UHGV virus genome: UHGV-1497260
Length of the DNA: 48,617 nucleotides
Reading direction: 5' to 3' (one strand)
Source of the DNA: a virus
This document shows positions 4,201 to 48,617 of the stretch, one piece after another. Numbering within the stretch: the stretch's first letter is position 1; each line of letters begins with the position of its first letter. The translations under genes were made by a program, and so were the position numbers. The notes under the pieces are model-generated. The model was not told the DNA's origin and did not search any database. It worked only from the letters and a program-made list of their open reading frames with translations.

Positions 4201-4920
4201 ATGGATCTTTTGAAAGATGCAAGAAAAAAAGAATGGTTTTGGCTGGAAAATGATTTGGTGGATAGAGAGGATCTAAGTGTTTACGAAAAAATGGCTTATA
4301 TGGTAATGGCAAGATATTCAGATGATGAAAGTTCTTGTTTCCCAAGTTTATCATTAATATCCAAGAAAATGGGATGCGGAATAACGACTGTCAAAAAAAC
4401 AATAAATAGTTTAGAAGAAAAAAATTTAATAATAAAAGTACATCGCAAGGTTAAAAACAAAAAGGAAAATGATACAAATGTTTATTACATTATGAGTTTG
4501 AAAGGTAAGTCGTCTGGCGACATAGGTCATGAGGCGACAGACGGTAGGTCGCCATACGACCAACAGGTAGGTCGCGAGGCGACTAGTAAAAAGACTTATA
4601 ATAAAAAGACTTATATAAAAAGTAATACCACTACACAAAAAGAATCTAAAACTTATTTAGACCTATCATTTTTAGATTTAGATATAGAAAAAGTAAAACT
4701 AACTAAAGATGAATATGACAAACTTATAAGCAAGTTTGGAAAGAAATACATACATGATAAAATTGTTAGTTTAGAAAACTATATCGTAAATGGTAAAGGG
4801 AGTAGATATAAGAGTCATTACAGAGCTTTGTTGACTTGGGGGAATGGAGATGCTAGTAAAGGTATAGTACCAGAAGTTACAAAGACTAAGAATCCTCTTA
4901 GTGGATTTAAAGAACTTTAA
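4201..4920 (+). CDS. phage replication initiator / replisome organizer (DnaD-like, N-terminal winged-helix)
   Basis: segment WFWLENDLVDREDLSVYEKMAYMVMARYSDDESSCFPSLSLISKKMGCGITTVKKTINSLEEKNLI is typical of firmicute phage initiator N-termini; C-terminal NYIVNGKG..ALLTWG motif; immediately upstream of the helicase. Confidence 0.65.
   Translation: MDLLKDARKKEWFWLENDLVDREDLSVYEKMAYMVMARYSDDESSCFPSLSLISKKMGCGITTVKKTINSLEEKNLIIKVHRKVKNKKENDTNVYYIMSLKGKSSGDIGHEATDGRSPYDQQVGREATSKKTYNKKTYIKSNTTTQKESKTYLDLSFLDLDIEKVKLTKDEYDKLISKFGKKYIHDKIVSLENYIVNGKGSRYKSHYRALLTWGNGDASKGIVPEVTKTKNPLSGFKEL
4505..4586. repeat. GC-rich island of direct and inverted repeats inside the initiator gene (GGTAGGTCGC x2, GAGGCGAC x2, GGCGAC/GTCGCC inverted); candidate phage origin
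   Basis: roughly 60% GC in a ~28% GC genome; repeats read directly; analogous to the lambda origin lying inside its O gene. Confidence 0.55.
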
Positions 4921-9770: not shown

Positions 9771-10144
9771 ATAATGTAGTTTTAGTTGGAAGATTAGCAA
9801 GAGATCCAGAATTAAGATATATACCAGAGTATGGTACTCCAGTTGCTACTTTTGCATTGGCAGTTGATAGGGGTTATACAAAAAAGGATGGAACTAGAGA
9901 AGTCGATTTTATACCAATTGAAGTTATGGGAGGATCCGCAGAATTTTGTGCTAATTATCTCGCAAAAGGAAGAATGGTTTCAATTCAAGGCCAAATAAGG
10001 ATAGAAAAATATGAAAAAGATGGAGAGAAAAAAACTTTCACAAAAGTAAGAACAAAAATTGTTAATGCGCTTGATCACAAGCCAAAGGATGAAGAAAAAG
10101 AAATTAGTTTTCAAGTTTTAGATGATGAAGATATTCCATTTTAA
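9767..10144 (+). CDS. ssb: single-stranded DNA-binding protein
   Basis: N-terminal NNVVLVGRLARDPELRY OB-fold signature and acidic C-terminal tail DDEDIPF. Confidence 0.9.
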   Translation: MNNVVLVGRLARDPELRYIPEYGTPVATFALAVDRGYTKKDGTREVDFIPIEVMGGSAEFCANYLAKGRMVSIQGQIRIEKYEKDGEKKTFTKVRTKIVNALDHKPKDEEKEISFQVLDDEDIPF

Positions 10145-10706
10145 ATTGGATGGTGATTATGTGAGAAGTTTAGAGGAGAGAAATAAATTATTTGAAGATA
10201 ATATAAATCTTGTACATTTTATTATAAATAGATATTTCAAATCCTTTTTAAGAAGGTATCCATATTTAAAAGAAGATTTATTTCAAGAAGGATATATAGG
10301 ATTATATAAAACAACATGTTGCTTTGATGAAAGTAAAGGAAAATTTTCTACAATAGCATTTTCGTATATATCAGGACATTTGAAAAGATTTACGACTGGA
10401 TATGTTAAGAAACATTATAGAAATGATATAGATAGTTTTGAAAAGTGTATTTATAGAGATAATTATGGAGAAGAGATAAGAATAGAAGATAGATTGGCTG
10501 GCAATGAAAATGTAGATATAGAAAATGTTCGTGTTATTAGATCTTGTATAAAAAGAAGTGAGATAAAAGATATACAGAAAATAGTTTGTCTAAGAGAAAA
10601 AGGTTATACTCAACAAGAAATAAGTAAAGTGCTTGGAACTAGCCAAACGTCAATATATAGGAGACTTAAAAAATTAAAAACTGAAATTAATATACTAGGT
10701 AAATAA
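10122..10706 (+). CDS. sigma-70 family RNA polymerase sigma factor (ECF/TcdR-like, regions 2 and 4)
   Basis: region 2-like segment DLFQEGYIGLYKTTCCFDESKGKFSTIAFSYISGHLKRF; region 4 HTH GYTQQEISKVLGTSQTSIYRRLKKLK; true start may be the internal GTG near 10161. Confidence 0.7.
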   Translation: MMKIFHFKLDGDYVRSLEERNKLFEDNINLVHFIINRYFKSFLRRYPYLKEDLFQEGYIGLYKTTCCFDESKGKFSTIAFSYISGHLKRFTTGYVKKHYRNDIDSFEKCIYRDNYGEEIRIEDRLAGNENVDIENVRVIRSCIKRSEIKDIQKIVCLREKGYTQQEISKVLGTSQTSIYRRLKKLKTEINILGK

Positions 10707-10895: not shown

Positions 10896-11222
10896 ATGAG
10901 TTGTGTTATAAAGTGTGATTTTTGTGGTGAAACAATAGCAGAAATTCTAAACATAAAGGTATTCAGAATTGATGATGAAGGTAATATAATGAGTATCGGA
11001 AAAGATGTATGTGGCAAATGTTATGACAGATTATTTGGAAGTAACTTGAATAAGAAGATGACTAATTATGAAAAGATAAAAAATATGAGCAAAATAGAAA
11101 TGGCTGAATTTCTTGCAAATGGCGGAAGTGGATGTACTAGTTGTGCTTATGATTTTCAAGAATGCTTAGGCGGATGTTTAGAAGGTAGAAAAAAATGGCT
11201 TGAAAGTGAGGCGATGAAATAA
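10896..11222 (+). CDS. Cys-rich hypothetical protein (N-terminal CxxC...CxxC zinc ribbon, C-terminal CTSC...C...GGC)
   Basis: sequence reading. Confidence 0.45.
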   Translation: MSCVIKCDFCGETIAEILNIKVFRIDDEGNIMSIGKDVCGKCYDRLFGSNLNKKMTNYEKIKNMSKIEMAEFLANGGSGCTSCAYDFQECLGGCLEGRKKWLESEAMK

Positions 11223-11758
11223 TGAAAAAGACGTTAATAATCGTAGGAGTAGTTATTTCAATATTAATTATGTTTGCTTGCTTGTTCTTAGTAACTAAAA
11301 ATAAAGCAATTGATTTAGAAGAGCAGGTCCAATCAGCAACTGCATCTGTAGAGGTGCAAGAAAAAAGGAGAATTGATTTAATTAAGAACATAGTAGACTG
11401 CGTAAAAGACTATGCTAAATATGAAAATAGGACATTAAAAGAAGTAACTGACATGAGAGTAAGTGCAAATGATGAATCTATCAAGGAAGCAAAATTAAAT
11501 ATACAAGCAGTAGCAGAGAAGTACCCAGATTTAAAAGCTAATGAAAATTATAAGCAACTAATGAGTGAGTTGAGTATAACAGAAAATATGATTGCACAAC
11601 ATAGAGAAAATTATAATATGCAAGTTCGCAATTACAATAAATATATAAGAAAATTTCCAGCAAATTTAATTCTAAATAGTATGGGATATGAAAAAATAGA
11701 ATCTAAATATACTGAATATAAAGCAAAAGAGGATGCACCTCAAAATTTATTTGATTAA
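11222..11758 (+). CDS. LemA-family membrane protein
   Basis: N-terminal transmembrane segment followed by the LemA-type segment EVQEKRRIDLIKNIVDCVKDYAKYENRTLKEVTDMR. Confidence 0.6.
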   Translation: MKKTLIIVGVVISILIMFACLFLVTKNKAIDLEEQVQSATASVEVQEKRRIDLIKNIVDCVKDYAKYENRTLKEVTDMRVSANDESIKEAKLNIQAVAEKYPDLKANENYKQLMSELSITENMIAQHRENYNMQVRNYNKYIRKFPANLILNSMGYEKIESKYTEYKAKEDAPQNLFD

Positions 11759-13756: not shown

Positions 13757-14200
13757 ATGCAATCTAGCAAAAAAGACAATTTGTTTAGTAGTGCAGAAGG
13801 TAAGTTATATAATTATAAAAAAATAAAAGCGGAAATAGAAAAAATAGACATTGATATGCAGATGATAAAAAACGACTACAGAGGATGTAGTGGAGTTGAA
13901 ATTAAAGAAAAGACAAGCAAGACATATGATATTAAAAGTGTAATTGAAATAGAGACTGAAGAAAAAGAAAAGAAAATTGCCTTAAAAGAAAAAGAGAAGA
14001 GACATAAAGAGTTGATAATAGAAAAAATAGATAATGCAATGAAAATATTAAGTGAAGAAGAAAAAAAGATAGTACAGTATAAATACTTTTCAAGTAGCAG
14101 GACATCTTGGGAATATGTTGGCAGAATGATTGGTTTTTCAGCGAGTAAGTGTAAGCAAATGAGGTTTGATATTATAGATAAGATAAAAGGATTGCTATAA
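13757..14200 (+). CDS. phage late-gene transcriptional activator, ArpU/RinA-like
   Basis: C-terminal sigma-region-4-like segment EEEKKIVQYKYF...SWEYVGRMIGFSASKCKQMRFDIIDKI; located just before the packaging module. Confidence 0.6.
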   Translation: MQSSKKDNLFSSAEGKLYNYKKIKAEIEKIDIDMQMIKNDYRGCSGVEIKEKTSKTYDIKSVIEIETEEKEKKIALKEKEKRHKELIIEKIDNAMKILSEEEKKIVQYKYFSSSRTSWEYVGRMIGFSASKCKQMRFDIIDKIKGLL

Positions 14201-14296
14201 AAATGTCCGATTTGTGACGATTTTAAACCGATTTATGTCTGTTTTGTGTCTAAAAAATGTCCGATTTGTGACCAATTTATGTCTGTTTTGTGTCTT
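14201..14296. repeat. two tandem ~45-bp direct repeats AAATGTCCGATTTGTGAC..ATTTATGTCTGTTTTGTGTCT (copy 1 has a 9-nt insertion)
   Basis: sequence reading; sits between the ArpU-like gene and the late operon. Confidence 0.8.
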
Positions 14297-36469: not shown

Positions 36470-38095
36470 GTGGCTACAGAATGGAATTTTGATTTTAAGG
36501 CAGAAGCACAACCAATTACTCTAAAAGCAGGTAAATATAAATTAGAGTGTTGGGGAGCTCATGGAAGGGTTTGGACTGGAGATTCTCCATCCAATGGAGG
36601 ATACTCTTATGGGGAACTTACATTAAAAAAAGAAACTACATTATATGTATACACAGGTGCTGCTGGTTCTAGTAATAAATATGAAGAATTTACATTTAAT
36701 GGAGGAGGACTTGGTGTTAATAGTGGAGGAGGTGGAGCAACTGATATAAGACTTGTCAATGGAGATTGGAATAATGAACAAGGTCTTTTGTCTAGGATAA
36801 TTGTTGCTGGTGGTGGTGGAGGCGCATTTAGTAAAACTCCTGCTGGCAAAGGTGGTGGTTTTAAAGGCGGAAATAGTACTAATGATGATAACAGTTCGAT
36901 GCTTATTGTACCTGGTGGTACACAATATGATGGAGGTAGAGGTTATTATGATGAATGGGATGGTGTTTTTGGTTGTGGTGGAGGTTCTATTCTTGGTTTA
37001 GAACGAGGTAAATACCCTTATAATTCAGGTGGAGGTGGATGGTTTGGTGGTGCAGGTGCTAGAAATACTTCAAGTGGTGGAGGTGGAAGTGGCTATGTAT
37101 TAACTAAAGATAGCTATAAACCTGTTGGATATATACCTACATCTGAATATTGGTTAGAAAATGTTGGTAGTATTACTGGGGGTAATACTGCTAAAGTAAA
37201 TGGTTATGCTAAGATAACATTACTGCAAGCATTACCAATTTTAACTATATCTTCTTATAATTCCACACAAGCAACATTTAAAGCAGACCACACAGACCCT
37301 ACACTATTAACTAAAATAGAATATTTTATAGATGATGTACTAAAAGAAACTATAACAACAGATTTAACTCTTGAAAAAACAATTAACTATACATTAGAAG
37401 ATAATGCTCTACACACACTTAAAATAGTCGTTACAGACAGTAATAATGCTACAGCTGAAAAAGTGTTAAGTATAAGTAAGAATATAATGCCACTGCCCGA
37501 AAATGTAAATTTGCAAGACATATCTTCTAAACTAATTGAAATTAATACAGGATTTAAAACTGGTAAAACAAGTATTATAAACACTTTAGCATTAAAGAAT
37601 ATAGAAGCAAGTTTAAATAATACACTTGTTGAGTTATCAGAGAAAATAAAAACAAGTTTTGATAGTTCAGACGCTAGTGTGCAGGAGTTGCAAAATAGGA
37701 TAACAGAATTGACTAATCAGTTAAGTCAAAGGATTAAATATGCAACGGGTACTTATACTATACCAGATGGCACTAGTAGTTTAGTTGTTCCAACTAATTT
37801 AACTTTTGTGCCAAAGACTATTATAGTTAAAATATTTTCTGTAAAAGATGGTTCTAATCCTTCTAAAACTCTTAGTGCTTATCCTTGTATGACTGGTGTA
37901 AATCAAAATCTTAGATATGACAATGGTTCATATACTCGCGTTATTGGTAATGCGAGTATTAGAGATGTTACTGCTGACAGTTTTAAGATTGAACTTGGTA
38001 AAAGTGATTTTAACGCTGGGGTTGAGTTTCCTTTTACGTTTTATAGTAAAACTTTTAGATGGTATGCGTTAGATATAGAATTTTTAAATAATTAA
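36470..38095 (+). CDS. glycine-rich tail fibre / receptor-binding protein
   Basis: multiple GGGG runs (GGGGATDIRL, AGGGGGAF, SGGGGWFGGAGA, SGGGGSGY). Confidence 0.55.
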   Translation: MATEWNFDFKAEAQPITLKAGKYKLECWGAHGRVWTGDSPSNGGYSYGELTLKKETTLYVYTGAAGSSNKYEEFTFNGGGLGVNSGGGGATDIRLVNGDWNNEQGLLSRIIVAGGGGGAFSKTPAGKGGGFKGGNSTNDDNSSMLIVPGGTQYDGGRGYYDEWDGVFGCGGGSILGLERGKYPYNSGGGGWFGGAGARNTSSGGGGSGYVLTKDSYKPVGYIPTSEYWLENVGSITGGNTAKVNGYAKITLLQALPILTISSYNSTQATFKADHTDPTLLTKIEYFIDDVLKETITTDLTLEKTINYTLEDNALHTLKIVVTDSNNATAEKVLSISKNIMPLPENVNLQDISSKLIEINTGFKTGKTSIINTLALKNIEASLNNTLVELSEKIKTSFDSSDASVQELQNRITELTNQLSQRIKYATGTYTIPDGTSSLVVPTNLTFVPKTIIVKIFSVKDGSNPSKTLSAYPCMTGVNQNLRYDNGSYTRVIGNASIRDVTADSFKIELGKSDFNAGVEFPFTFYSKTFRWYALDIEFLNN

Positions 38096-38112
38096 TAATA
38101 TGAGGTGATGAT

Positions 38113-38406
38113 ATGAATAGAGGAAATAGAGTAATTTATAATCAAGACGGAAAGATATTACTCCAAACAGGAGAAGCAACAGGGGATATATTAGAGCATG
38201 ATACAATAACAGAATTACATTATATTGATGTTGGATACGGAAATATAGACTATAGTAAACAGTATATAGAATCTATAAATCCAATAACAAAAGAACCTAT
38301 TTTAAAAGATATTCCAATCTATTTAAGCGAAGAAGAAAAGAGAATACAAGAGTTAGAAAATCAATTACTAATTGCAGAAAATGAAAAAGTGGGAGGATTA
38401 TTATAA
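38113..38406 (+). CDS. hypothetical tail-associated protein
   Basis: ORF. Confidence 0.4.
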   Translation: MNRGNRVIYNQDGKILLQTGEATGDILEHDTITELHYIDVGYGNIDYSKQYIESINPITKEPILKDIPIYLSEEEKRIQELENQLLIAENEKVGGLL

Positions 38407-38588
38407 TGAATATAAATAATGTTGTAGTAAGAATATTAGCAGAGAGAATATTAAACAAAGGATTAAACCCTCTAAAAAATCGAGAATTTGAATTAGATGA
38501 CGTAACTAACACAGAGTATAGAAAAGCAGTAGAGGATTATATAATTAAACAGAGTGGAGTAGTAGAAGGAATAGAACCAACAGCGTAG
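38406..38588 (+). CDS. small XkdX-like protein
   Basis: size and position. Confidence 0.35.
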   Translation: MNINNVVVRILAERILNKGLNPLKNREFELDDVTNTEYRKAVEDYIIKQSGVVEGIEPTA

Positions 38589-38620
38589 TAGGTTCTTTTT
38601 TTATTGAAAGAGGTGATTAA

Positions 38621-39187
38621 ATGACTTTTAAGGAGTTAGTTAATAAAGTTAGAAATCTTGTATTAGAAGCAAAGAATGTAACTATAGAAGATACAGAAAG
38701 TAAATTTACAAGTGAAAATGTAGAAGGAGCATTGAAAGAATGTATAGATAGAGCAGATGAGGCTTTTCAAGAAGCCGATAGTGGAAAAACACTTTTATCA
38801 ACTGCTATCGGCTCTCCTGCTACACCAGAACAAACATTTCAAGATTATGCGAACTATATTACAGGATTTAAGAGCAATATAAGCAATTTAGAAACTCAAT
38901 TGAAAAGCAAATATTCTATTAGACATGGTCCCATTGATGGAGATGATAGGAATCCTTTTTCTGCTAATTTTGGCAAGAGTGCAAGTTACCTTATTGTCTA
39001 TGTTTACTTTAGAAGAAATGTATATTATTATAATCCCAGTGGTAGTTCTTTAGGAAGTAGTACAGGAGGCTCTGAACGTGCCTGGATTACTATAGATAGC
39101 AATAAAACTGGTTTTTCAGTTCATTCATATGATACTAATTATGAGTCATATACTTTTACAGGTTATTATATTGCTTGTTTCGCATAA
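38621..39187 (+). CDS. hypothetical protein
   Basis: ORF with GAGGTGA ribosome-binding site. Confidence 0.4.
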   Translation: MTFKELVNKVRNLVLEAKNVTIEDTESKFTSENVEGALKECIDRADEAFQEADSGKTLLSTAIGSPATPEQTFQDYANYITGFKSNISNLETQLKSKYSIRHGPIDGDDRNPFSANFGKSASYLIVYVYFRRNVYYYNPSGSSLGSSTGGSERAWITIDSNKTGFSVHSYDTNYESYTFTGYYIACFA

Positions 39188-39217: not shown

Positions 39218-39508
39218 ATGGAAGAAATTAGCATAAATCTATTATGTGCAGTTGCAGGAGTTGTAATATCCTACTTAGCATTTAGAAATAGTTCAAACAG
39301 AAAGATACAAGATGATACAGAAACAACTACAAAATTAGAACAACAAATAACTTTTCTGTGTGAGAATGTAAGAGATATAAAGCATGATGTAGCAAAGTTT
39401 AATACAAGTTTCTTAGATATCAGTGAACGAGTTGCAAAAGTAGAAGCAAGTACAAAACAAGCACATCTTAGAATTGATGAAATTATAAATAGAATTGGAG
39501 GAAAATAA
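39218..39508 (+). CDS. membrane-anchored coiled-coil protein (XhlA/hemolysin-like lysis accessory)
   Basis: N-terminal transmembrane segment INLLCAVAGVVISYLAF, then a coiled coil; position before the holin. Confidence 0.4.
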   Translation: MEEISINLLCAVAGVVISYLAFRNSSNRKIQDDTETTTKLEQQITFLCENVRDIKHDVAKFNTSFLDISERVAKVEASTKQAHLRIDEIINRIGGK

Positions 39509-39511
39509 AAG

Positions 39512-39769
39512 ATGGATAATTTAATAAGTTTTATACCAGAGCAGTTACTAATTTTAGTAGCTGCTCTTTATGTTATAGGAGCAGGTTGCAAGAAATATAA
39601 GCAATTAGATAATAAATATATTCCAGTAGTGTTATTGATACTTGGTATAGGTTTCTCAATATGGATGCTAGGATTAAATCCTAACGCAGTCTTACAGGGA
39701 ATAATTTGTTGGGGAATATCAATAGGTATAAATCAAACTTACAAACAATTAAAGGAGGAAAACAAATAA
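39512..39769 (+). CDS. holin
   Basis: 85 aa with two transmembrane segments and a charged C-terminus; immediately upstream of the endolysin. Confidence 0.6.
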   Translation: MDNLISFIPEQLLILVAALYVIGAGCKKYKQLDNKYIPVVLLILGIGFSIWMLGLNPNAVLQGIICWGISIGINQTYKQLKEENK

Positions 39770-40584
39770 TGAAAATAGGTATAAATTGTGGACATACAAA
39801 AACAGGACCAGGAAGTGGAGCTATAGGTAAAATAAATGAGTCAATAGAAACTAGGAATGTAGGATATAAAGTAATTGATAAATTAAAAAAACTAGGCAAT
39901 AATGTAGTCGATTGTACTATAGATAAAGCATCTACTCAATCAGAATGTTTATCTAAGATAACAGCACAAGCTAATAGACAAGATTTAGATTGGTTCATAT
40001 CAATACATTTCAACGCTGGAGGTGGCAAAGGATGTGAAGTTTACACATATAAAGGTAAGCAGTATCAAGATGCTATAGATGTTTGTAAAAAAATCTCTGA
40101 TTTAGGATTTACAAATCGAGGTGTAAAAGATGGAAGTGGATTATATGTAGTAAAGAAAACAAAAGCTAAAAGTATGCTAATAGAAGTATGCTTTGTAGAC
40201 ACCGAAGATGCAAATAAGTATTTGAGTTTAGGAGCTGATAAATTAGCTACTGCAATAGTAGAAGCTATAACTAAACATATAAGTTCAGCAGAAGAAAACA
40301 ATTATAACAGATATAAACATACTATAGTATATTCTGGAGATGATAAAGTATCAGCAGACATTTTAGGATTATATTATAAGAGAGAAAAAGAAAGTTACTT
40401 AGTAACAGATATAAAAGACTATAAGCCACATAGAACACAAAATTTGTATGTAATTGGTGGAGTAACTTGTAATAAAATGAAAGAAATGAGTAAGACTACA
40501 GGAGAAAAATTTACTCAACTATATAGTAATGATGTATGGTCAACAATGGATAAAGCTATAGAATTTGTAAAAGAAAAATTATAA
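39770..40584 (+). CDS. endolysin: N-acetylmuramoyl-L-alanine amidase (Amidase_3) with a CD27L-type C-terminal domain
   Basis: N-terminal MKIGINCGHT...HFNAGGGKG amidase_3 segments; C-terminal YKHTIVYSGDDKVSADILG...DIKDYKPHRTQNLYVIGG resembles the CD27L endolysin C-terminal domain (from memory, not a search). Confidence 0.8.
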
Positions 40585-40655
40585 ATTAAAAGACAACCTT
40601 TAAAAATTAATTGTTAATAAAACTAATAAAATTTTCAACTCAGAAGGAACATTAT

Positions 40656-41762
40656 ATGTTAACATTTTTAGATTTGTTTGCTGGCATTGGAGGTTTTAGG
40701 CTGGGAATGGAAAGAGCAGGACACAAATGCGTAGGCCATTGCGAATACGATAAATTTGCAAACTTAAGTTACAAAGCAATGCATAACCCAAAGGAGGATG
40801 AATGGTTTGAAAAAGACATTAGAGAAATTAGAGCAGAAAATATTCCCAAAGCAGATGTGTGGTGTTTTGGATTCCCATGTCAAGACATTAGCATTGCAGG
40901 GAACAAACTTGGATTCAAAGGAAGTCGTTCAAGTTTATTTTTCTCAGTTACAAAAATTATTAGAGAACTCAAAGAGGAAGATAGACCCAAGTACTTACTT
41001 ATTGAAAACGTTAAAAATTTACTTAGTGTTAATAGAGGATTTGACTTTGCCAAACTTCTCATTGAGTTGGACGAAATCGGCTATGATGCAGAATGGCAAA
41101 ATCTCAATTCTAAAAACTTCAGAGTTCCCCAAAATAGAGACAGAGTGTACATTATTGGACATCTTAGAGGCAGAAGTACAAGAAAAGTATTTCCTATCAC
41201 AGGAACGAGTAGAAAAACTACTCTTAAGCAAATAAATAGTCCTAGCCATAGTTCAAATAGAATTTATGATTCAAGCGGATTATCAAAGTGTTTATTAAGT
41301 AAAGGTGGAAATAACACAGGTCTTTATAAAGTTGGTAATGTCAATCCTAGCGGAAATGGTATAGGAGGACAAGTATATAATAGTAAAGGATTATCTCCAA
41401 CCCTTACAACTGAAAAAGGAGAAAGCCCAAAGATATTGATTAAAGAAAATACTAAAAAAGGACATATTGAGGCAGCTATAGGAGATGGCATAAGACTAGA
41501 TCATATAGGAGGCAAAACGGGGCGTGGAAGAGTTCAACACAAAAGAAGTTGTACTTTGACTACTGCAAGTAATGCTGGCGTAATTGGTAAAAAATTTAGA
41601 GTAAGGAGGTTGACTCCAAAAGAATGTTTTAGGTTACAAGGATTTCCAGACGATTATTACGATAGAGCGGCAAGTGTCTGTTCAGAAACTCAACTATACA
41701 AGCAAGCAGGCAATAGTGTTACTGTAGATGTTGTTGAAGAAATAGCAAAGAAATTAAAATAG
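40656..41762 (+). CDS. DNA (cytosine-5)-methyltransferase, orphan
   Basis: motif I FAGIGGF, motif IV GFPCQDIS, motif VI ENVKNL; no adjacent restriction endonuclease. Confidence 0.85.
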   Translation: MLTFLDLFAGIGGFRLGMERAGHKCVGHCEYDKFANLSYKAMHNPKEDEWFEKDIREIRAENIPKADVWCFGFPCQDISIAGNKLGFKGSRSSLFFSVTKIIRELKEEDRPKYLLIENVKNLLSVNRGFDFAKLLIELDEIGYDAEWQNLNSKNFRVPQNRDRVYIIGHLRGRSTRKVFPITGTSRKTTLKQINSPSHSSNRIYDSSGLSKCLLSKGGNNTGLYKVGNVNPSGNGIGGQVYNSKGLSPTLTTEKGESPKILIKENTKKGHIEAAIGDGIRLDHIGGKTGRGRVQHKRSCTLTTASNAGVIGKKFRVRRLTPKECFRLQGFPDDYYDRAASVCSETQLYKQAGNSVTVDVVEEIAKKLK

Positions 41763-41899: not shown

Positions 41900-42235
41900 A
41901 TGTTAACACAAAGCTTAAAACGTGGCGAATTAAGTATAATGAAAATCTTTTGGAAAAGAAGTTCAAGCATATCAAAGAAAGAAATTATTCGCCTTTGCAA
42001 TGAAAAATACAAGTGGCGGAAATCTACAACAAAAATTCTACTTAAAAGACTTGTTAAAAAAAGAGTCTTGCTTAAAAGAATTAAATTTTTCCACATATAT
42101 TACATACCTATAGTTACAGAAAAGGAATACATTAAATGTAAAATGAATAATTTAGAGCCAAATTATCTGGATGGATACTTTGTACGATTAATGTCTACTG
42201 CACATAAATTCAAAAATATAGATGAAGAAGATTAA
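41900..42235 (+). CDS. BlaI/MecI/CopY-family repressor, second copy (diverged)
   Basis: ELSIMKIFWKRSSSISKKEIIRLCNEKYKWRKSTTKILLKRLVKKRVL aligns with the 1105-1488 protein (ELLVMMYIWDS...KYEWKKSTMLTFLRRLVGRGFL). Confidence 0.55.
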   Translation: MLTQSLKRGELSIMKIFWKRSSSISKKEIIRLCNEKYKWRKSTTKILLKRLVKKRVLLKRIKFFHIYYIPIVTEKEYIKCKMNNLEPNYLDGYFVRLMSTAHKFKNIDEED

Positions 42236-42843: not shown

Positions 42844-43749
42844 TTATTTCATCATTTTTTTGTATCCTTTTGCATTTGCAAAAACATGTTTATCTACATC
42901 ACTCATAACTATTATGCCAGGTATATTCTTTTTAAATGCTTCACCTAACAATTTAGCACCTCCACCCATAACAACAACCGCAGCTGTACTAACTGGATAA
43001 TTTAATTTCAATTCATTGTATATTTCTTTAAATAGAGAAATAGATGCATCTATATTTTTCTTTATATCTTGTTTTTCACCATTTAGGTAAAATCCTTTAT
43101 TTATGTAGTCTTGTATTTTTTCTCTTTTTATCTCAACTTTACCTAAAAATCTTTCGTCCATCTCAAGAGATTTCTTTATTGCATCATATATATTTATTGT
43201 TCCCACATTTATAGAATATGGATTAGTTGCTTTATTTCCTTGTACAAGTGCAATATCTGTTGTCTTTCCACCAATATCAACTAAAACAACATCTCTTCCT
43301 GCAACTTGGTCAACTATATCTTTTGCATAATATAAATAGCCTGTAACGCCCTCTGGGAACACTTGAACAGATCTTATTACTATATCTCTTTTAGTAGTTT
43401 CATTTCCTTTTGCAAATTCAACATGATATTCTTTTCCTTGTAATTTTTCAATCAAATCTTTTCTTAATCCTCCAAATTGCTTCACTGGTAGACCTAATGC
43501 TAGATCAATAACTTCATCATCTGTATTTCTGCATATAGCCCCAAGTAAAAGCGGTAAGAAGTTTTCTTTCTCATATTTAACTATATTTATTTCTTCGTCA
43601 CCTTCGCCTAAATAATATGTTTTATTACCTATTTTAATGCTATCTGAATCTGAACCAAAGTTTTTTACCTCTGTAACTTTACTTTCAAAAATATCATCTG
43701 TACTTGTTTTAACTGCATAATTTCCAATATCTATACCTAATTTACTCAT
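42844..43749 (-). CDS. parM: ParM/Alp-family actin-like segregation ATPase
   Basis: N-terminal MSKLGIDIGNYAVK phosphate-1 motif; actin-fold motifs DIGGKTTD and VVMGGGA; paired with a small upstream gene. Confidence 0.75.
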   Translation of the reverse strand: MSKLGIDIGNYAVKTSTDDIFESKVTEVKNFGSDSDSIKIGNKTYYLGEGDEEINIVKYEKENFLPLLLGAICRNTDDEVIDLALGLPVKQFGGLRKDLIEKLQGKEYHVEFAKGNETTKRDIVIRSVQVFPEGVTGYLYYAKDIVDQVAGRDVVLVDIGGKTTDIALVQGNKATNPYSINVGTINIYDAIKKSLEMDERFLGKVEIKREKIQDYINKGFYLNGEKQDIKKNIDASISLFKEIYNELKLNYPVSTAAVVVMGGGAKLLGEAFKKNIPGIIVMSDVDKHVFANAKGYKKMMK

Positions 43750-45680: not shown

Positions 45681-46415
45681 TTAAGAATTTGCATTACAAT
45701 AATCAGAAAGCTTGTCCCACTCACAATCAACCCCTATTATTTTAAGAATATCATTGACTTGGCTATTTAAATCTTTAATATCTGATTTAGACATTAAAGG
45801 ATCTTTCATTATTTCATTTAGAAAAATACTATCAATGATTAAACATACATTTTCTGATATATATTCACGTTTTACTGAGATTGCTGTTCCAACTACACTT
45901 TCTTTTAATGTCTTGTATGCTACACTCATTATACATGGTTCTAACTCAATTCCTTCTAGTGTTATTTCAAAAGAATATCTTATTTTTATATTTTCATTTC
46001 CAATAAATATTTCTTCATTGCTGCTTATCTTCTTTAATTTTCTCATTATGCCTAACATCTTAGCATTCACTTCATAATTTATTCCATATCTCTTTGATGC
46101 CAAACTCGACATTAAGTCTCTTTCTAAATAAATTACCCACTGACCATTATAGGAAAATGATGTTTTAGCGATATCCATTTCTCCTTTTCCAGTAATATTA
46201 AATTTAGGCTCTAGTTTATTTATTAAGTAAATCTCATAAAAATCCATAGTATATTTATTATCTAATTCCATATACTCAAGTCTTAAATTCTTATTACACC
46301 AATTTTCTTTTTTATTACTTAAATGACTAGCGTGTCTATCACAGATATTCTCTGTTTTCCCAACGTATAAACATTCTTCCGTATCTTGATTAATATATTT
46401 ATAAACATAATACAT
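45681..46415 (-). CDS. GIY-YIG nuclease-domain protein, copy 2
   Basis: N-terminal YVYKYI...LYVGKTEN...RH..H...FYEIYLINKLEPKFN carries the GIY, YIG, Arg and Glu motifs; divergent C-terminus. Confidence 0.75.
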   Translation of the reverse strand: MYYVYKYINQDTEECLYVGKTENICDRHASHLSNKKENWCNKNLRLEYMELDNKYTMDFYEIYLINKLEPKFNITGKGEMDIAKTSFSYNGQWVIYLERDLMSSLASKRYGINYEVNAKMLGIMRKLKKISSNEEIFIGNENIKIRYSFEITLEGIELEPCIMSVAYKTLKESVVGTAISVKREYISENVCLIIDSIFLNEIMKDPLMSKSDIKDLNSQVNDILKIIGVDCEWDKLSDYCNANS

Positions 46416-46434: not shown

Positions 46435-47235
46435 TTAATTGTCATATTTACAGCCCTTATATATTTCAAATAATTCTTGCCATGTATATCCAACTTCTAG
46501 TATGTGAAAAATATCCTCTATTTGTTGGAAAATCTCAGTAATTTTATATTCAAATGTTGGCATTAATTCCATTAAATTAGCCAAAGATCCAATCCTAATC
46601 TCTAATGTTATATTTATAAGTATTTTTTTATTTGTTGCTGTATATTCTTTCCATCTGGGATAAACTGAAATCAAAGAACAACTTCCAAATCTTTCTAATG
46701 TTTCAAAATCATATGATATCAAATTAATATCTAATTCATTCTCACAAAATTCTATATCCATATTTTCAAAGTTATATAGCACACTTAAAACATTATTTTC
46801 ATATAACATTTCAACCTTGGCATCTAACTTTTCAATTCTCTTTAAAAAATTAATAGATTTTTTACTTACTTCATATTTCATATCTATCTTTCTTTCTCTG
46901 AATCTTCTTTTTCCCTTTGTCTTTTCCTTAAAATCTTCTTCTGAATATGTACTCCAATCTTCTTCCTTGTAATCAAAAAAGATGTGTTCAGTATCCATAT
47001 CACCTTTACTTAGTTTATTAAATATTGGATTTAGTTCATTTATTAAATAAACTTCAAAAAAATCCATATTATATCTACGTGGAAGTTCAATATATTTTAA
47101 TATTAATTCTTTAGTACACCAATCTTCTTCTTTATTACTCAAATGAGATGAATGCCTTGCATATATATCTTCTGTTTTTCCAACGTATAAACATTCTTCT
47201 GTAGCTGGATCAATATATTTATAAACATAATACAT
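46435..47235 (-). CDS. GIY-YIG nuclease-domain protein, copy 1
   Basis: same motifs (YVYKYI, LYVGKTED, FEVYLINELNPIFN); first ~100 nt and the ribosome-binding-site region nearly identical to copy 2. Confidence 0.75.
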   Translation of the reverse strand: MYYVYKYIDPATEECLYVGKTEDIYARHSSHLSNKEEDWCTKELILKYIELPRRYNMDFFEVYLINELNPIFNKLSKGDMDTEHIFFDYKEEDWSTYSEEDFKEKTKGKRRFRERKIDMKYEVSKKSINFLKRIEKLDAKVEMLYENNVLSVLYNFENMDIEFCENELDINLISYDFETLERFGSCSLISVYPRWKEYTATNKKILINITLEIRIGSLANLMELMPTFEYKITEIFQQIEDIFHILEVGYTWQELFEIYKGCKYDN

Positions 47236-47254: not shown

Positions 47255-48442
47255 TTATTTATAGTAATATCCTTCTTCATTTACTATACCTTGATCAAAT
47301 AAATTTCTCCTAACAGTTTCAAGTCTGACAGGATCTTTGCTATAATCAACTTCTCTTTCTTCTTTTTTAACATCTTCATCATCCCAATATTTATCTAATT
47401 CTTCTTTAAACTTTAAATCATCTTTTTGATGAATTATAACTTCACTTATTTTATTTGAAAGTGTTGATTTAAAAAAATCATAATTCTTTGTATTTATAAT
47501 ATCAGTATTATCTCTTTCAAATGCTATAGCAATAGACTTATTAAAAGCATTCAGATAAACATCTTTCTTAAAATCAAACTCTTTAAAATCTTCTTTAAAT
47601 AGTTTAATCGTCCCTGTTGTAAAAATATTTTCATTTGGTATATAAAAACTAAAAGACACTTCATTGTCCTGCTTCTTTTTAGGTATATAATCTTCAACCA
47701 ATATATCTTTATCAAAATATTTTCTAGGTTCATAATCTATCACAGAAAAAATTATTTCATCTATTTTTCTATTTTTTCTTTTTTCTTCTTTTATTGAAAC
47801 AACCATGTTGCCTTTTTTATTTATTTCATTCATTGCTCTTTTTAGAACATTTTGTTTAAAATATTTATACTCTGGATATACATTATCTTTTAATTTCAAA
47901 TAAAATCTTAATTCATCTAACTTATATTTTATCTCCACTTCCTTATTTTCTCTGCTCCATAGTCTAAATAAAGTGTATAACCTCTGAGTATATGCACCTC
48001 TAAAATTAAATAACACTGATAAATTAATAGCTGTATATCCATTTTTCTTTTTCTGCATTTTTACAAAATCAGTTATATGATTGTATAGAACTTCATGCAT
48101 CATAATTGTATAAATTTGGTCTGTATGATCCAATTCATATGTATTAATTAAACCACTTCCAAAAGTTTTTAACTTGCCAGTTGTCTCTTCTATATAGTCA
48201 AATTCCAAAACACTTTGTTGAAACATGTTCAAAATTTCTTTTATATTTTTATGCTCATAATCATTATTGTTTTTCATAAATACTTTTAGTTCTTCTTTTG
48301 ATATAGTTGTAACATAAGATGAATTTTGCTGTTTCTGAGCATTAAAAAGTATTTTGTAAAATAATTTATTTTCCACATTTGTAAAATCATATTTACTTTT
48401 TATTAAATTATTTGGTTGCATTAAAATTTCTTTTTTTTCCAA
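47255..48442 (-). CDS. plasmid replication initiator, Rep_3-like (iteron-binding)
   Basis: N-terminal segment NNLIKSKYDFTNVENKLFYKILFNAQ resembles the Rep_3 family signature; gene abuts the iteron array. Confidence 0.65.
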   Translation of the reverse strand: MEKKEILMQPNNLIKSKYDFTNVENKLFYKILFNAQKQQNSSYVTTISKEELKVFMKNNNDYEHKNIKEILNMFQQSVLEFDYIEETTGKLKTFGSGLINTYELDHTDQIYTIMMHEVLYNHITDFVKMQKKKNGYTAINLSVLFNFRGAYTQRLYTLFRLWSRENKEVEIKYKLDELRFYLKLKDNVYPEYKYFKQNVLKRAMNEINKKGNMVVSIKEEKRKNRKIDEIIFSVIDYEPRKYFDKDILVEDYIPKKKQDNEVSFSFYIPNENIFTTGTIKLFKEDFKEFDFKKDVYLNAFNKSIAIAFERDNTDIINTKNYDFFKSTLSNKISEVIIHQKDDLKFKEELDKYWDDEDVKKEEREVDYSKDPVRLETVRRNLFDQGIVNEEGYYYK

Positions 48443-48506: not shown

Positions 48507-48617
48507 GCTCACCTTTGACCCTTAAAATGATGACCTTTGACCCTTAAAATGATGACCTTTGACCCTTAAAATGATGACCTTTCGACCCTTAAAATGATGA
48601 CCTTTGACCCTTAAAAT
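48507..48617. repeat. iteron array: one degenerate plus four 22/23-bp copies of GATGACCTTTGACCCTTAAAAT
   Basis: copies at 48529-48550, 48551-48572, 48573-48595 (one inserted C) and 48596-48617; degenerate copy at 48507-48528. Confidence 0.9.

Follow-up and report, generated by a model that had tools for sequence, protein, structure and literature searches.

An endolysin gene near position 39,770 of the window, by which we mean the whole 48,617-nucleotide stretch of UHGV virus genome UHGV-1497260 that was analysed, raises the question of which bacterium its carrier infects and whether the lysin works as CD27L and its relatives do. The earlier note described a protein with an Amidase_3 N-terminus and a CD27L-type C-terminal domain, and proposed a Clostridioides difficile-like host. 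We find a real open reading frame (ORF) with both domains. Very probably it serves a pCDBI1/pDLL3026-family phage-plasmid of C. difficile as its endolysin gene, stands last in a canonical lysis cassette (small gene, holin, endolysin), is a mosaic, and acts by the mechanism proposed below. The observation is confirmed and is an ordinary one, as gene, family, host and carrier element are all already known, and its only mildly interesting points are an intragenic recombination joint and a missing internal start site.

The gene has a single start that carries a Shine-Dalgarno sequence. The ORF list and the raw sequence place its ATG at 39769, so that the start given in the earlier note (39770) was one base late, and its stop codon at 40582-40584 (Table 1). 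This ATG begins on the final base of the holin TAA, so that the two overlap as TAATG. A scan of all in-frame ATG, GTG and TTG codons of the gene found a Shine-Dalgarno sequence in front of the 39769 start only, and phiCD119 gp35 begins at the equivalent ATG. We considered a longer ORF opened by a TTG at 39706 and rejected it, since no Shine-Dalgarno sequence precedes it, it begins inside the holin gene, and homologues begin at the ATG. The coding sequence matches phrog_435 (endolysin) at E 2e-85. Its GC content is 29.0%, against 28.5% for the window, which bears out the AT-richness reported earlier.

Table 1. Coordinates of the features of the lysis locus and of the replicon that carries it (window positions).
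Feature	Position	Strand	Evidence or remark
96-aa protein directly upstream of holin	39218..39508	+	phrog_1863 (unknown function), E 1.4e-35; Pfam matches weak, sub-threshold
Holin, 85 aa	39512..39769	+	Pfam Phage_holin_5_2, E 3.5e-20; phrog_1129 holin, E 7e-39
Shine-Dalgarno AGGAGG, within holin gene 3′ end	39753..39758	+	10-nt spacer to endolysin ATG
Endolysin CDS, 271 aa + stop	39769..40584	+	ORF and translation; phiCD119 gp35-type N-acetylmuramoyl-L-alanine amidase
Amidase_3 catalytic domain, aa 1-170	39769..40278	+	Pfam PF01520
Interdomain linker, aa 171-181, KHISSAEENNYNR	40279..40311	+	Codon comparison of 11 lysins, start/Shine-Dalgarno scan, DNA alignment
CD27L-type C-terminal domain, aa 182-271	40312..40581	+	4cu5_A match; cell-wall binding and oligomerisation
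Recombination junction, first codon of C-terminal domain (YKHTIVY)	40312..40312		Right side matches pJ21_1, left side does not
Short tyrosine recombinase, 214 aa	14892-15536	+	
ParM/ALP actin-like partition protein	42844-43749	-	ALP_N/ParM
Rep_3 initiator gene	47255-48442	-	Rep3_N, Rep3_C; adjoins iteron array
22-bp iteron GATGACCTTTGACCCTTAAAAT	48511-48617 (4.8 copies) and 1-54 (2.5 copies)		Continuous across window ends

The N-terminal half is a complete Amidase_3 domain, as the earlier note had it. PF01520 aligns with aa 3-169 at 106.5 bits (cut-off 27; E 2e-30), spanning profile positions 1-174 of 174. In a sequence search of PDB chains its nearest solved relatives are 9jzo_A (E 1.6e-21) and PlyPSA 1xov_A (1.8e-21), with the CD27L catalytic domain 3qay_A ranking behind them (E 3e-16). 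Across an alignment of 11 lysins H9, E24, H80 and E139 are invariant and aligned with CD27L H9/E26/H84/E144. Under the established H/E/H zinc-ligand and catalytic-Glu assignment for Amidase_3, the predicted zinc ligands are H9, E24 and H80, and E139 is the predicted catalytic residue. The CD27L mutants H84A and E144A have lost lytic activity (PMC4110038).

Likeness of the C-terminal domain to that of CD27L, put forward in the earlier note, reflects genuine homology. A phmmer search of all PDB chains aligned aa 182-268 with chain 4cu5_A (residues 2-84 of 85) at E 5.3e-18, far above chance; 4CU5 is the solved CD27L C-terminal domain, and its identity to the domain of the endolysin is 50.6%. The sequence literally contains both motifs that the earlier note quoted, YKHTIVY (aa 182-188) and DIKDYKPHRTQNLYVIGG (aa 214-231), and the domain matches phrog_9482 at E 8e-39. 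No Pfam model matches it: searched in isolation at E values up to 10, it returns only a meaningless DUF3461 match, in agreement with the report that CD27L-type C-terminal domains have no Pfam or InterPro family (PMC9045149). In relatives, domains of this type dimerise and take part in an oligomeric switch (PMC4110038, PMC4777826), and they bind wall polysaccharide and anchor on lysed-cell debris (PMC9045149). Remote homology to CWB2 has also been proposed (PMC9045149); a profile built from the domain matches the S-layer protein 9f8e_B at three successive YvvGG...DRxxT repeats (overall E 8e-4), which agrees weakly with that proposal. The profile matches CTP1L as well, but this is not independent evidence because CS74L was included in the profile. 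Pairwise BLASTP of the domain against CS74L gave no significant similarity.

Within the CD27L type, the endolysin's C-terminal domain is a divergent subtype. Only three residues, D198, T261 and R258, are conserved between CD27L and CTP1L (PMC4110038). The equivalents of D198 and T261 (D192 and T259) are invariant in our alignment. The R258 equivalent is not kept, and Val stands in its column (NDVWST vs NDRFDT) in the lysins of the window, phiCD119, CD160 and OX244046; this is a subtype difference that does not overturn the homology. CD27L W207 and Y262, which belong to the head-on dimer face, are replaced by Leu and Asp in the endolysin, and two small insertions (2 and 3 residues) are present relative to CD27L. 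Given W207L, Y262D, R258V and the two insertions, dimer geometry or ligand binding may differ from that of CD27L.

All three checks proposed for the host, on the endolysin, terL and the capsid protein, point to C. difficile. By BLASTP the endolysin shares 96.3% identity, along its entire length, with phiCD119 gp35, phiCD119 being a C. difficile phage. The terL protein is 94.6% identical to that of HGP05 and 92.9% to that of phiSemix9P1, both C. difficile phages (next match 52.5%), and the major capsid protein is 85.7% and 85.3% identical to those of the same two phages (next about 50%). Best matches in other genera, the outcome named in advance as refuting this host, did not occur. Structural genes of the window are related to those of HGP05 and phiSemix9P1, at 87-92% DNA identity; the two phages form Cluster G (PMC12671070). 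Every other phage in the collection that matches the endolysin over its full length is also a C. difficile phage, with identities of about 36-42%. The exact 271-aa protein is recorded at NCBI as 'N-acetylmuramoyl-L-alanine amidase [Clostridioides difficile]' on 317 contigs, its 90% cluster is C. difficile for every member listed, and a scan of one genome per species recovered full-length relatives on C. difficile contigs only. The endolysin is found in 442 index blocks, mostly contigs of 20-50 kb, with a shared holin-lysin-methyltransferase-BlaI-ParM context. Used alone as a query, the C-terminal domain matches 69 phage records, and all 60 of the 60 listed are C. difficile phages.

The catalytic half, by contrast, matches widely; it is not informative about the host and alone would mislead. 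It is 68% identical to the lysins of Thomasclavelia phages TR-TP1/TP2 and 55-66% to lysins of Clostridium saudiense, C. cuniculi, C. disporicum and many Lachnospiraceae MAGs, against 34-45% to lysins of other C. difficile phages; with the phiCD119 type set aside, Thomasclavelia, Clostridium and Lachnospiraceae have its closest relatives. Taken by themselves these values favour a host in Clostridium sensu stricto or Lachnospiraceae rather than C. difficile. That possibility has practically no probability left and is already refuted by the present results, since Clostridioides alone accounts for the full-length matches, for the listed matches of the C-terminal domain, for those of terL and the capsid protein, and for DNA identity of 95-98.6% over the whole replicon, and the exact protein carries a C. 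difficile label. Given this contrast between the domains, the earlier note was right to weight the C-terminal one in naming C. difficile. The fold family also occurs in phage lysins of Clostridium sensu stricto, namely CTP1L (C. tyrobutyricum) and CS74L (C. sporogenes) (PMC4110038), so the C-terminal domain marks C. difficile only at recognisable sequence similarity. Full-length relatives of the endolysin at 38% identity are present on C. botulinum plasmids.

The element that carries the gene is a 48.6-kb phage-plasmid and not an integrated prophage. Iterons run across both window ends beside a Rep_3 gene, which means that the window is a whole circular replicon cut inside its origin. Its backbone is 95-98.6% identical at the DNA level to C. 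difficile plasmids of 45-48 kb (pCDBI1, pDSM1296, pJ21_1, pCd10_2, NZ_CP037832 and NZ_CP132147), and its plasmid matches are to Clostridioides in every case, with up to 100% coverage of segments. This identity, together with a Rep gene and iteron origin, ParM and the structural genes, places the window in pCDBI1/pDLL3026, a known C. difficile phage-plasmid family (PMC12291638). Like the window, pCDBI1, pDSM1296 and pDLL3026 are circles of 45-48 kb with RepB/Rep_3, ParM and a complete myophage module (PMC12291638). The window replicon also has genes for DnaB, SSB and two sigma-like factors, together with a full myophage module. Among roughly 35 ORFs scanned there is no Pfam-detectable full-length integrase, and the 214-aa tyrosine recombinase, judged by length, resembles a multimer-resolution enzyme more than a full phage integrase.

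The replicon has several further features outside the lysis genes. A C-5 cytosine DNA methyltransferase gene (40656-41762, + strand) lies directly 3′ of the lysin; pJ21_1 has it, and pCDBI1 and pCd10_2 lack it. Its DNA shares about 85% identity with phiCD119 gp60/61, located quite elsewhere in that phage, and it looks like another mobile module. Two genes encode BlaI/MecI/CopY-type (Penicillinase_R) repressors (1105-1500, - strand, and 41900-42235, + strand), with no obvious sensor protease gene nearby, and these may be a lysogeny or maintenance switch. Tandem GIY-YIG nuclease-like genes (45681-46415 and 46435-47235, both - strand) sit between the partition and replication genes and score just under the Pfam gathering threshold. 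Further imperfect direct-repeat arrays with units of 22-23 bp occur at 4523-4583, inside the HTH_36 ORF 4201-4920, and at 14235-14295, in the intergenic sequence upstream of 14319. ORFs of the early region (10122-10706, 11222-11758 and 13757-14200) include one for a sigma-70-like factor, one for a membrane protein of the LemA family, and one whose DNA matches the phiSemix9P1 'putative sigma factor' gene region at 81.9% identity, which hints at phage-encoded control of late transcription.

Two other observations concern the surroundings of the lysis genes. Between the tail fibre and the lysis genes, a 541-aa glycine-rich protein is encoded at 36470-38095 (+ strand; phrog_1589, and ALK_LTK_GRD in the precomputed Pfam annotation of the identical gene on contig JBJNXN010000003.1), followed by three small ORFs in 38113-39187. 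This stretch (36470-39187) is the most variable part of the window relative to sister plasmids and phages, at 70-88% identity or with no match, and it probably holds receptor-binding or accessory genes. The 395-kb contig JBJNXN010000003.1 (GCA_045892755.1) carries an identical lysis and partition locus twice, at 270903-283718 and 319496-332311. The two copies lie 48,593 bp apart, about one unit length of the window. This suggests that the contig is a concatemer, produced by the assembly or present as a genuine tandem multimer.

The organisation around the endolysin is that of a lysis cassette. A Phage_holin_5_2 holin gene lies directly upstream in the same orientation, the cassette stands at the end of the tail module, and the lysin has no signal peptide: its N-terminus, MKIGINCGHTKTGPGSG, is not hydrophobic and gives no sign of a signal sequence. 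The slot of the 96-aa protein ahead of the holin is occupied by an XhlA/'hemolysin' gene in phiCD119, phiCD27 and pCd10_2 according to the annotations of these neighbours, and a matching cassette layout is present in phiCD119, phiCD27 and phiMMP01. The Pfam Amidase_3 family does include autolysins, and solved-structure matches of the endolysin extend to Cwp6 (5j72), an autolysin of C. difficile, and to a germination-specific amidase/autolysin (7rag), as might be expected if the gene were no functional phage lysis gene but an autolysin of the host or the remnant of a decayed prophage. We consider this highly improbable, given that the ORF is intact with conserved catalytic residues, overlaps the holin gene, ends a complete head-tail module (terL, portal, capsid, sheath, tape measure and baseplate), recurs in the same arrangement in the isolated phage phiCD119, and is preserved as the exact allele on hundreds of contigs.

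Searches for regulatory elements returned little around this phage cassette. Rfam at gathering thresholds and a tRNA search each gave 0 matches, and promoter-like sites were not commoner than in shuffled sequence. The terminator scan returned a single terminator-like hairpin, inside the holin ORF: a 13-bp perfect inverted repeat with a 4-nt loop (AGAGCAGTTACTA-ATTT-TAGTAGCTGCTCT, 39538-39567) in the 5′ part of the gene, which could equally be a chance occurrence or affect holin translation.

Comparison of alleles shows that the two halves of the endolysin have different relatives. Identities to its catalytic (aa 1-170) and C-terminal (aa 182-271) domains are 95.3% and 97.8% for phiCD119, 94.7% and 72.7% for CD160, 34.3% and 95.6% for the OX244046 prophage lysin, 33.7% and 50.6% for CD27L, and 51.5% and 20.3% for CS74L. 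The endolysin joins a catalytic domain whose type is widespread among Clostridium and Lachnospiraceae phages to a C. difficile-specific C-terminal domain. The DNA alignments (blastn) locate the joints. phiCD119 aligns with 39506-40592, exactly the holin and lysin, at 92.3%; HGP05 and pCd10_2 align with the holin only (39499-39784) and are divergent after it. pJ21_1 (NZ_CP134691) is unrelated over the holin and catalytic domain and aligns from 40312 to at least 44000 (94.8%), and the OX244046 chromosomal prophage aligns with 40312-40587 only (93.1%). Lysins of pJ21_1 and OX244046 are therefore chimeric with respect to that of the window, joining a CD27L-type catalytic domain and linker (34% identity) to a window-type C-terminal domain that is near-identical (95.6% in protein, 93-95% in DNA), with the switch exactly at 40312. 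pJ21_1 further shares the downstream methyltransferase, BlaI-type regulator and ParM genes with the window.

Exchange at this locus extends to the plasmid family as a whole. No pCDBI1-family plasmid in PLSDB has the lysin allele of the window; their lysins are 36.8-53.4% identical to it, and the lysis locus is a swapped module. This makes the lysis locus an exchange hot-spot in the pCDBI1 family, with one joint intragenic at the domain boundary. Such a mosaic is standard modular endolysin evolution.

Known lysins resemble the endolysin to different degrees. The closest is gp35 of the myophage phiCD119 (YP_529586.1; Lubbockvirus), which likewise has 271 aa, both domains, the linker, an upstream holin and the TAATG overlap. 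However, phiCD119 is an integrating prophage with an integrase, whereas the window is a Rep_3/ParM phage-plasmid, and outside the lysis block the phiCD119 genome is only 64-88% identical or unrelated to it. CD27L (phiCD27 gp34; PDB 3QAY, 4CU5) also combines an Amidase_3 domain with a C-terminal domain of this fold family at similar length, has a homologous holin upstream, and shares the catalytic H/E/H/E and the D198, T261 and C238 equivalents, although both of its domains are much less similar in sequence. CS74L, from the C. sporogenes phage phi8074-B1, and CTP1L, from the C. tyrobutyricum phage phiCTP1 (PDB 4CU2, 5A6S), are two-domain clostridial lysins with a CD27L-fold C-terminal domain that is only about 20% identical, and their hosts belong to Clostridium sensu stricto. 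The catalytic domain of CS74L is nearer to that of the window than is that of CD27L; the catalytic domain of CTP1L is a glycosyl hydrolase.

The endolysin differs from CD27L, CS74L and CTP1L at the linker, where those lysins have an internal translation start. In all three, the linker carries a Shine-Dalgarno sequence and a start codon of its own, from which a free C-terminal domain is made, and this binds to the full-length enzyme (Dunne et al., PMC4777826). The site in CD27L is GAGGGAG followed by the ATG of Met186, the internal start in CS74L and CTP1L is GTG, and an internal ATG is present in all CD27L-related lysins but one (PMC4777826); we found no mention in PMC4110038 of phiCD119 as that one. 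Our codon comparison shows GAG GGA GTT AAA CAG ATG or a similar sequence in phiCD27, phiMMP01, phiCD38-2, phiCD6356, phiSemix9P1, pJ21_1 and OX244046, standing just ahead of YKHTIVY, and a GTG at the internal-start position in phiCD211 and CS74L. Instead, the lysins of the window, phiCD119 and CD160 read GAA GAA AAC AAT TAT AAC/AAT AGA, with neither a start codon nor a G-rich tract. The position of CD27L Met186 is taken by AGA (Arg181) in the endolysin, as it is by Arg in phiCD119 gp35. The linker contains no in-frame ATG, GTG or TTG and no G-rich Shine-Dalgarno sequence, and the scan of these three codons over the whole gene found no Shine-Dalgarno sequence before any internal in-frame start.

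With no internal Shine-Dalgarno sequence and start, the endolysin is not placed in the class of lysins with a 'secondary translation product', though its domain is homologous to theirs. It probably acts at full length only, no free C-terminal domain being translated beside it. Could it nevertheless work like CD27L, CTP1L and CS74L, with an internally initiated C-terminal domain that complexes with the full-length enzyme and switches its oligomeric state? The homology of the C-terminal domain to that of CD27L speaks for this, as does the fact that sister alleles with a matching C-terminal domain (OX244046 and pJ21_1) do have an SD-like sequence and an ATG. We nonetheless regard it as unlikely, because Arg replaces the initiating Met, the linker is devoid of any start codon or G-rich ribosome-binding tract, no internal in-frame start anywhere in the gene has a Shine-Dalgarno sequence, and one CD27L-related lysin lacking the ATG is already documented (PMC4777826). 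Release of a free C-terminal domain by proteolysis or non-canonical initiation would be compatible with the absence of a canonical Shine-Dalgarno sequence and start codon.

Loss of the internal site is plausibly tolerated, since knocking out the internal ribosome-binding site of CD27L left in vitro lytic activity unchanged (PMC4777826). The endolysin is also an exception to the remark that lysins with Cys238 have the initiating Met (PMC4110038), as it keeps the equivalent Cys without that Met. One tentative possibility, to which we give slightly less than an even chance, is that phiCD119-type lysins, including that of the window, are natural 'knock-outs' of the internal start. The start site would then move with the catalytic-domain/linker side of the joint at the first codon of the C-terminal domain, and shuffling among C. 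difficile phages would toggle this regulatory layer while leaving the wall-binding domain unchanged.

Homologues that are 34-51% identical suggest how the endolysin would act. It would be translated from its own strong Shine-Dalgarno sequence inside the end of the holin gene, and the TAATG overlap suggests translational coupling to the holin. As it lacks a signal sequence, accumulation in the cytoplasm is expected until the holin permeabilises the membrane, as holin-endolysin systems generally work. By homology, the zinc amidase at the N-terminus (H9/E24/H80 and the catalytic E139) would then cut peptidoglycan at the MurNAc-L-Ala bond. The C-terminal domain would dimerise, bind C. difficile wall polysaccharide and hold the enzyme on the debris of lysed cells, as experiments on CD27L and CD16/50L suggest. 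Unlike in CD27L, CS74L and CTP1L, the enzyme would probably do so as full-length protein only, there being no internal ribosome-binding site or start at the linker. The window has the entire holin-lysin block in common with phiCD119.

Together, our results fix the host of the 48.6-kb element as C. difficile and identify the element as a pCDBI1-family phage-plasmid, and they have little importance beyond correct annotation. The alleles compared here do form a natural swap set for C. difficile endolysin engineering, in which a single C-terminal domain is joined to either of two unrelated amidase domains, with and without the internal start, and a single amidase domain is combined with C-terminal domains sharing 73-98% identity. 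This set could probe the contribution of the free C-terminal domain, and of the domain itself, to lysis and wall retention.
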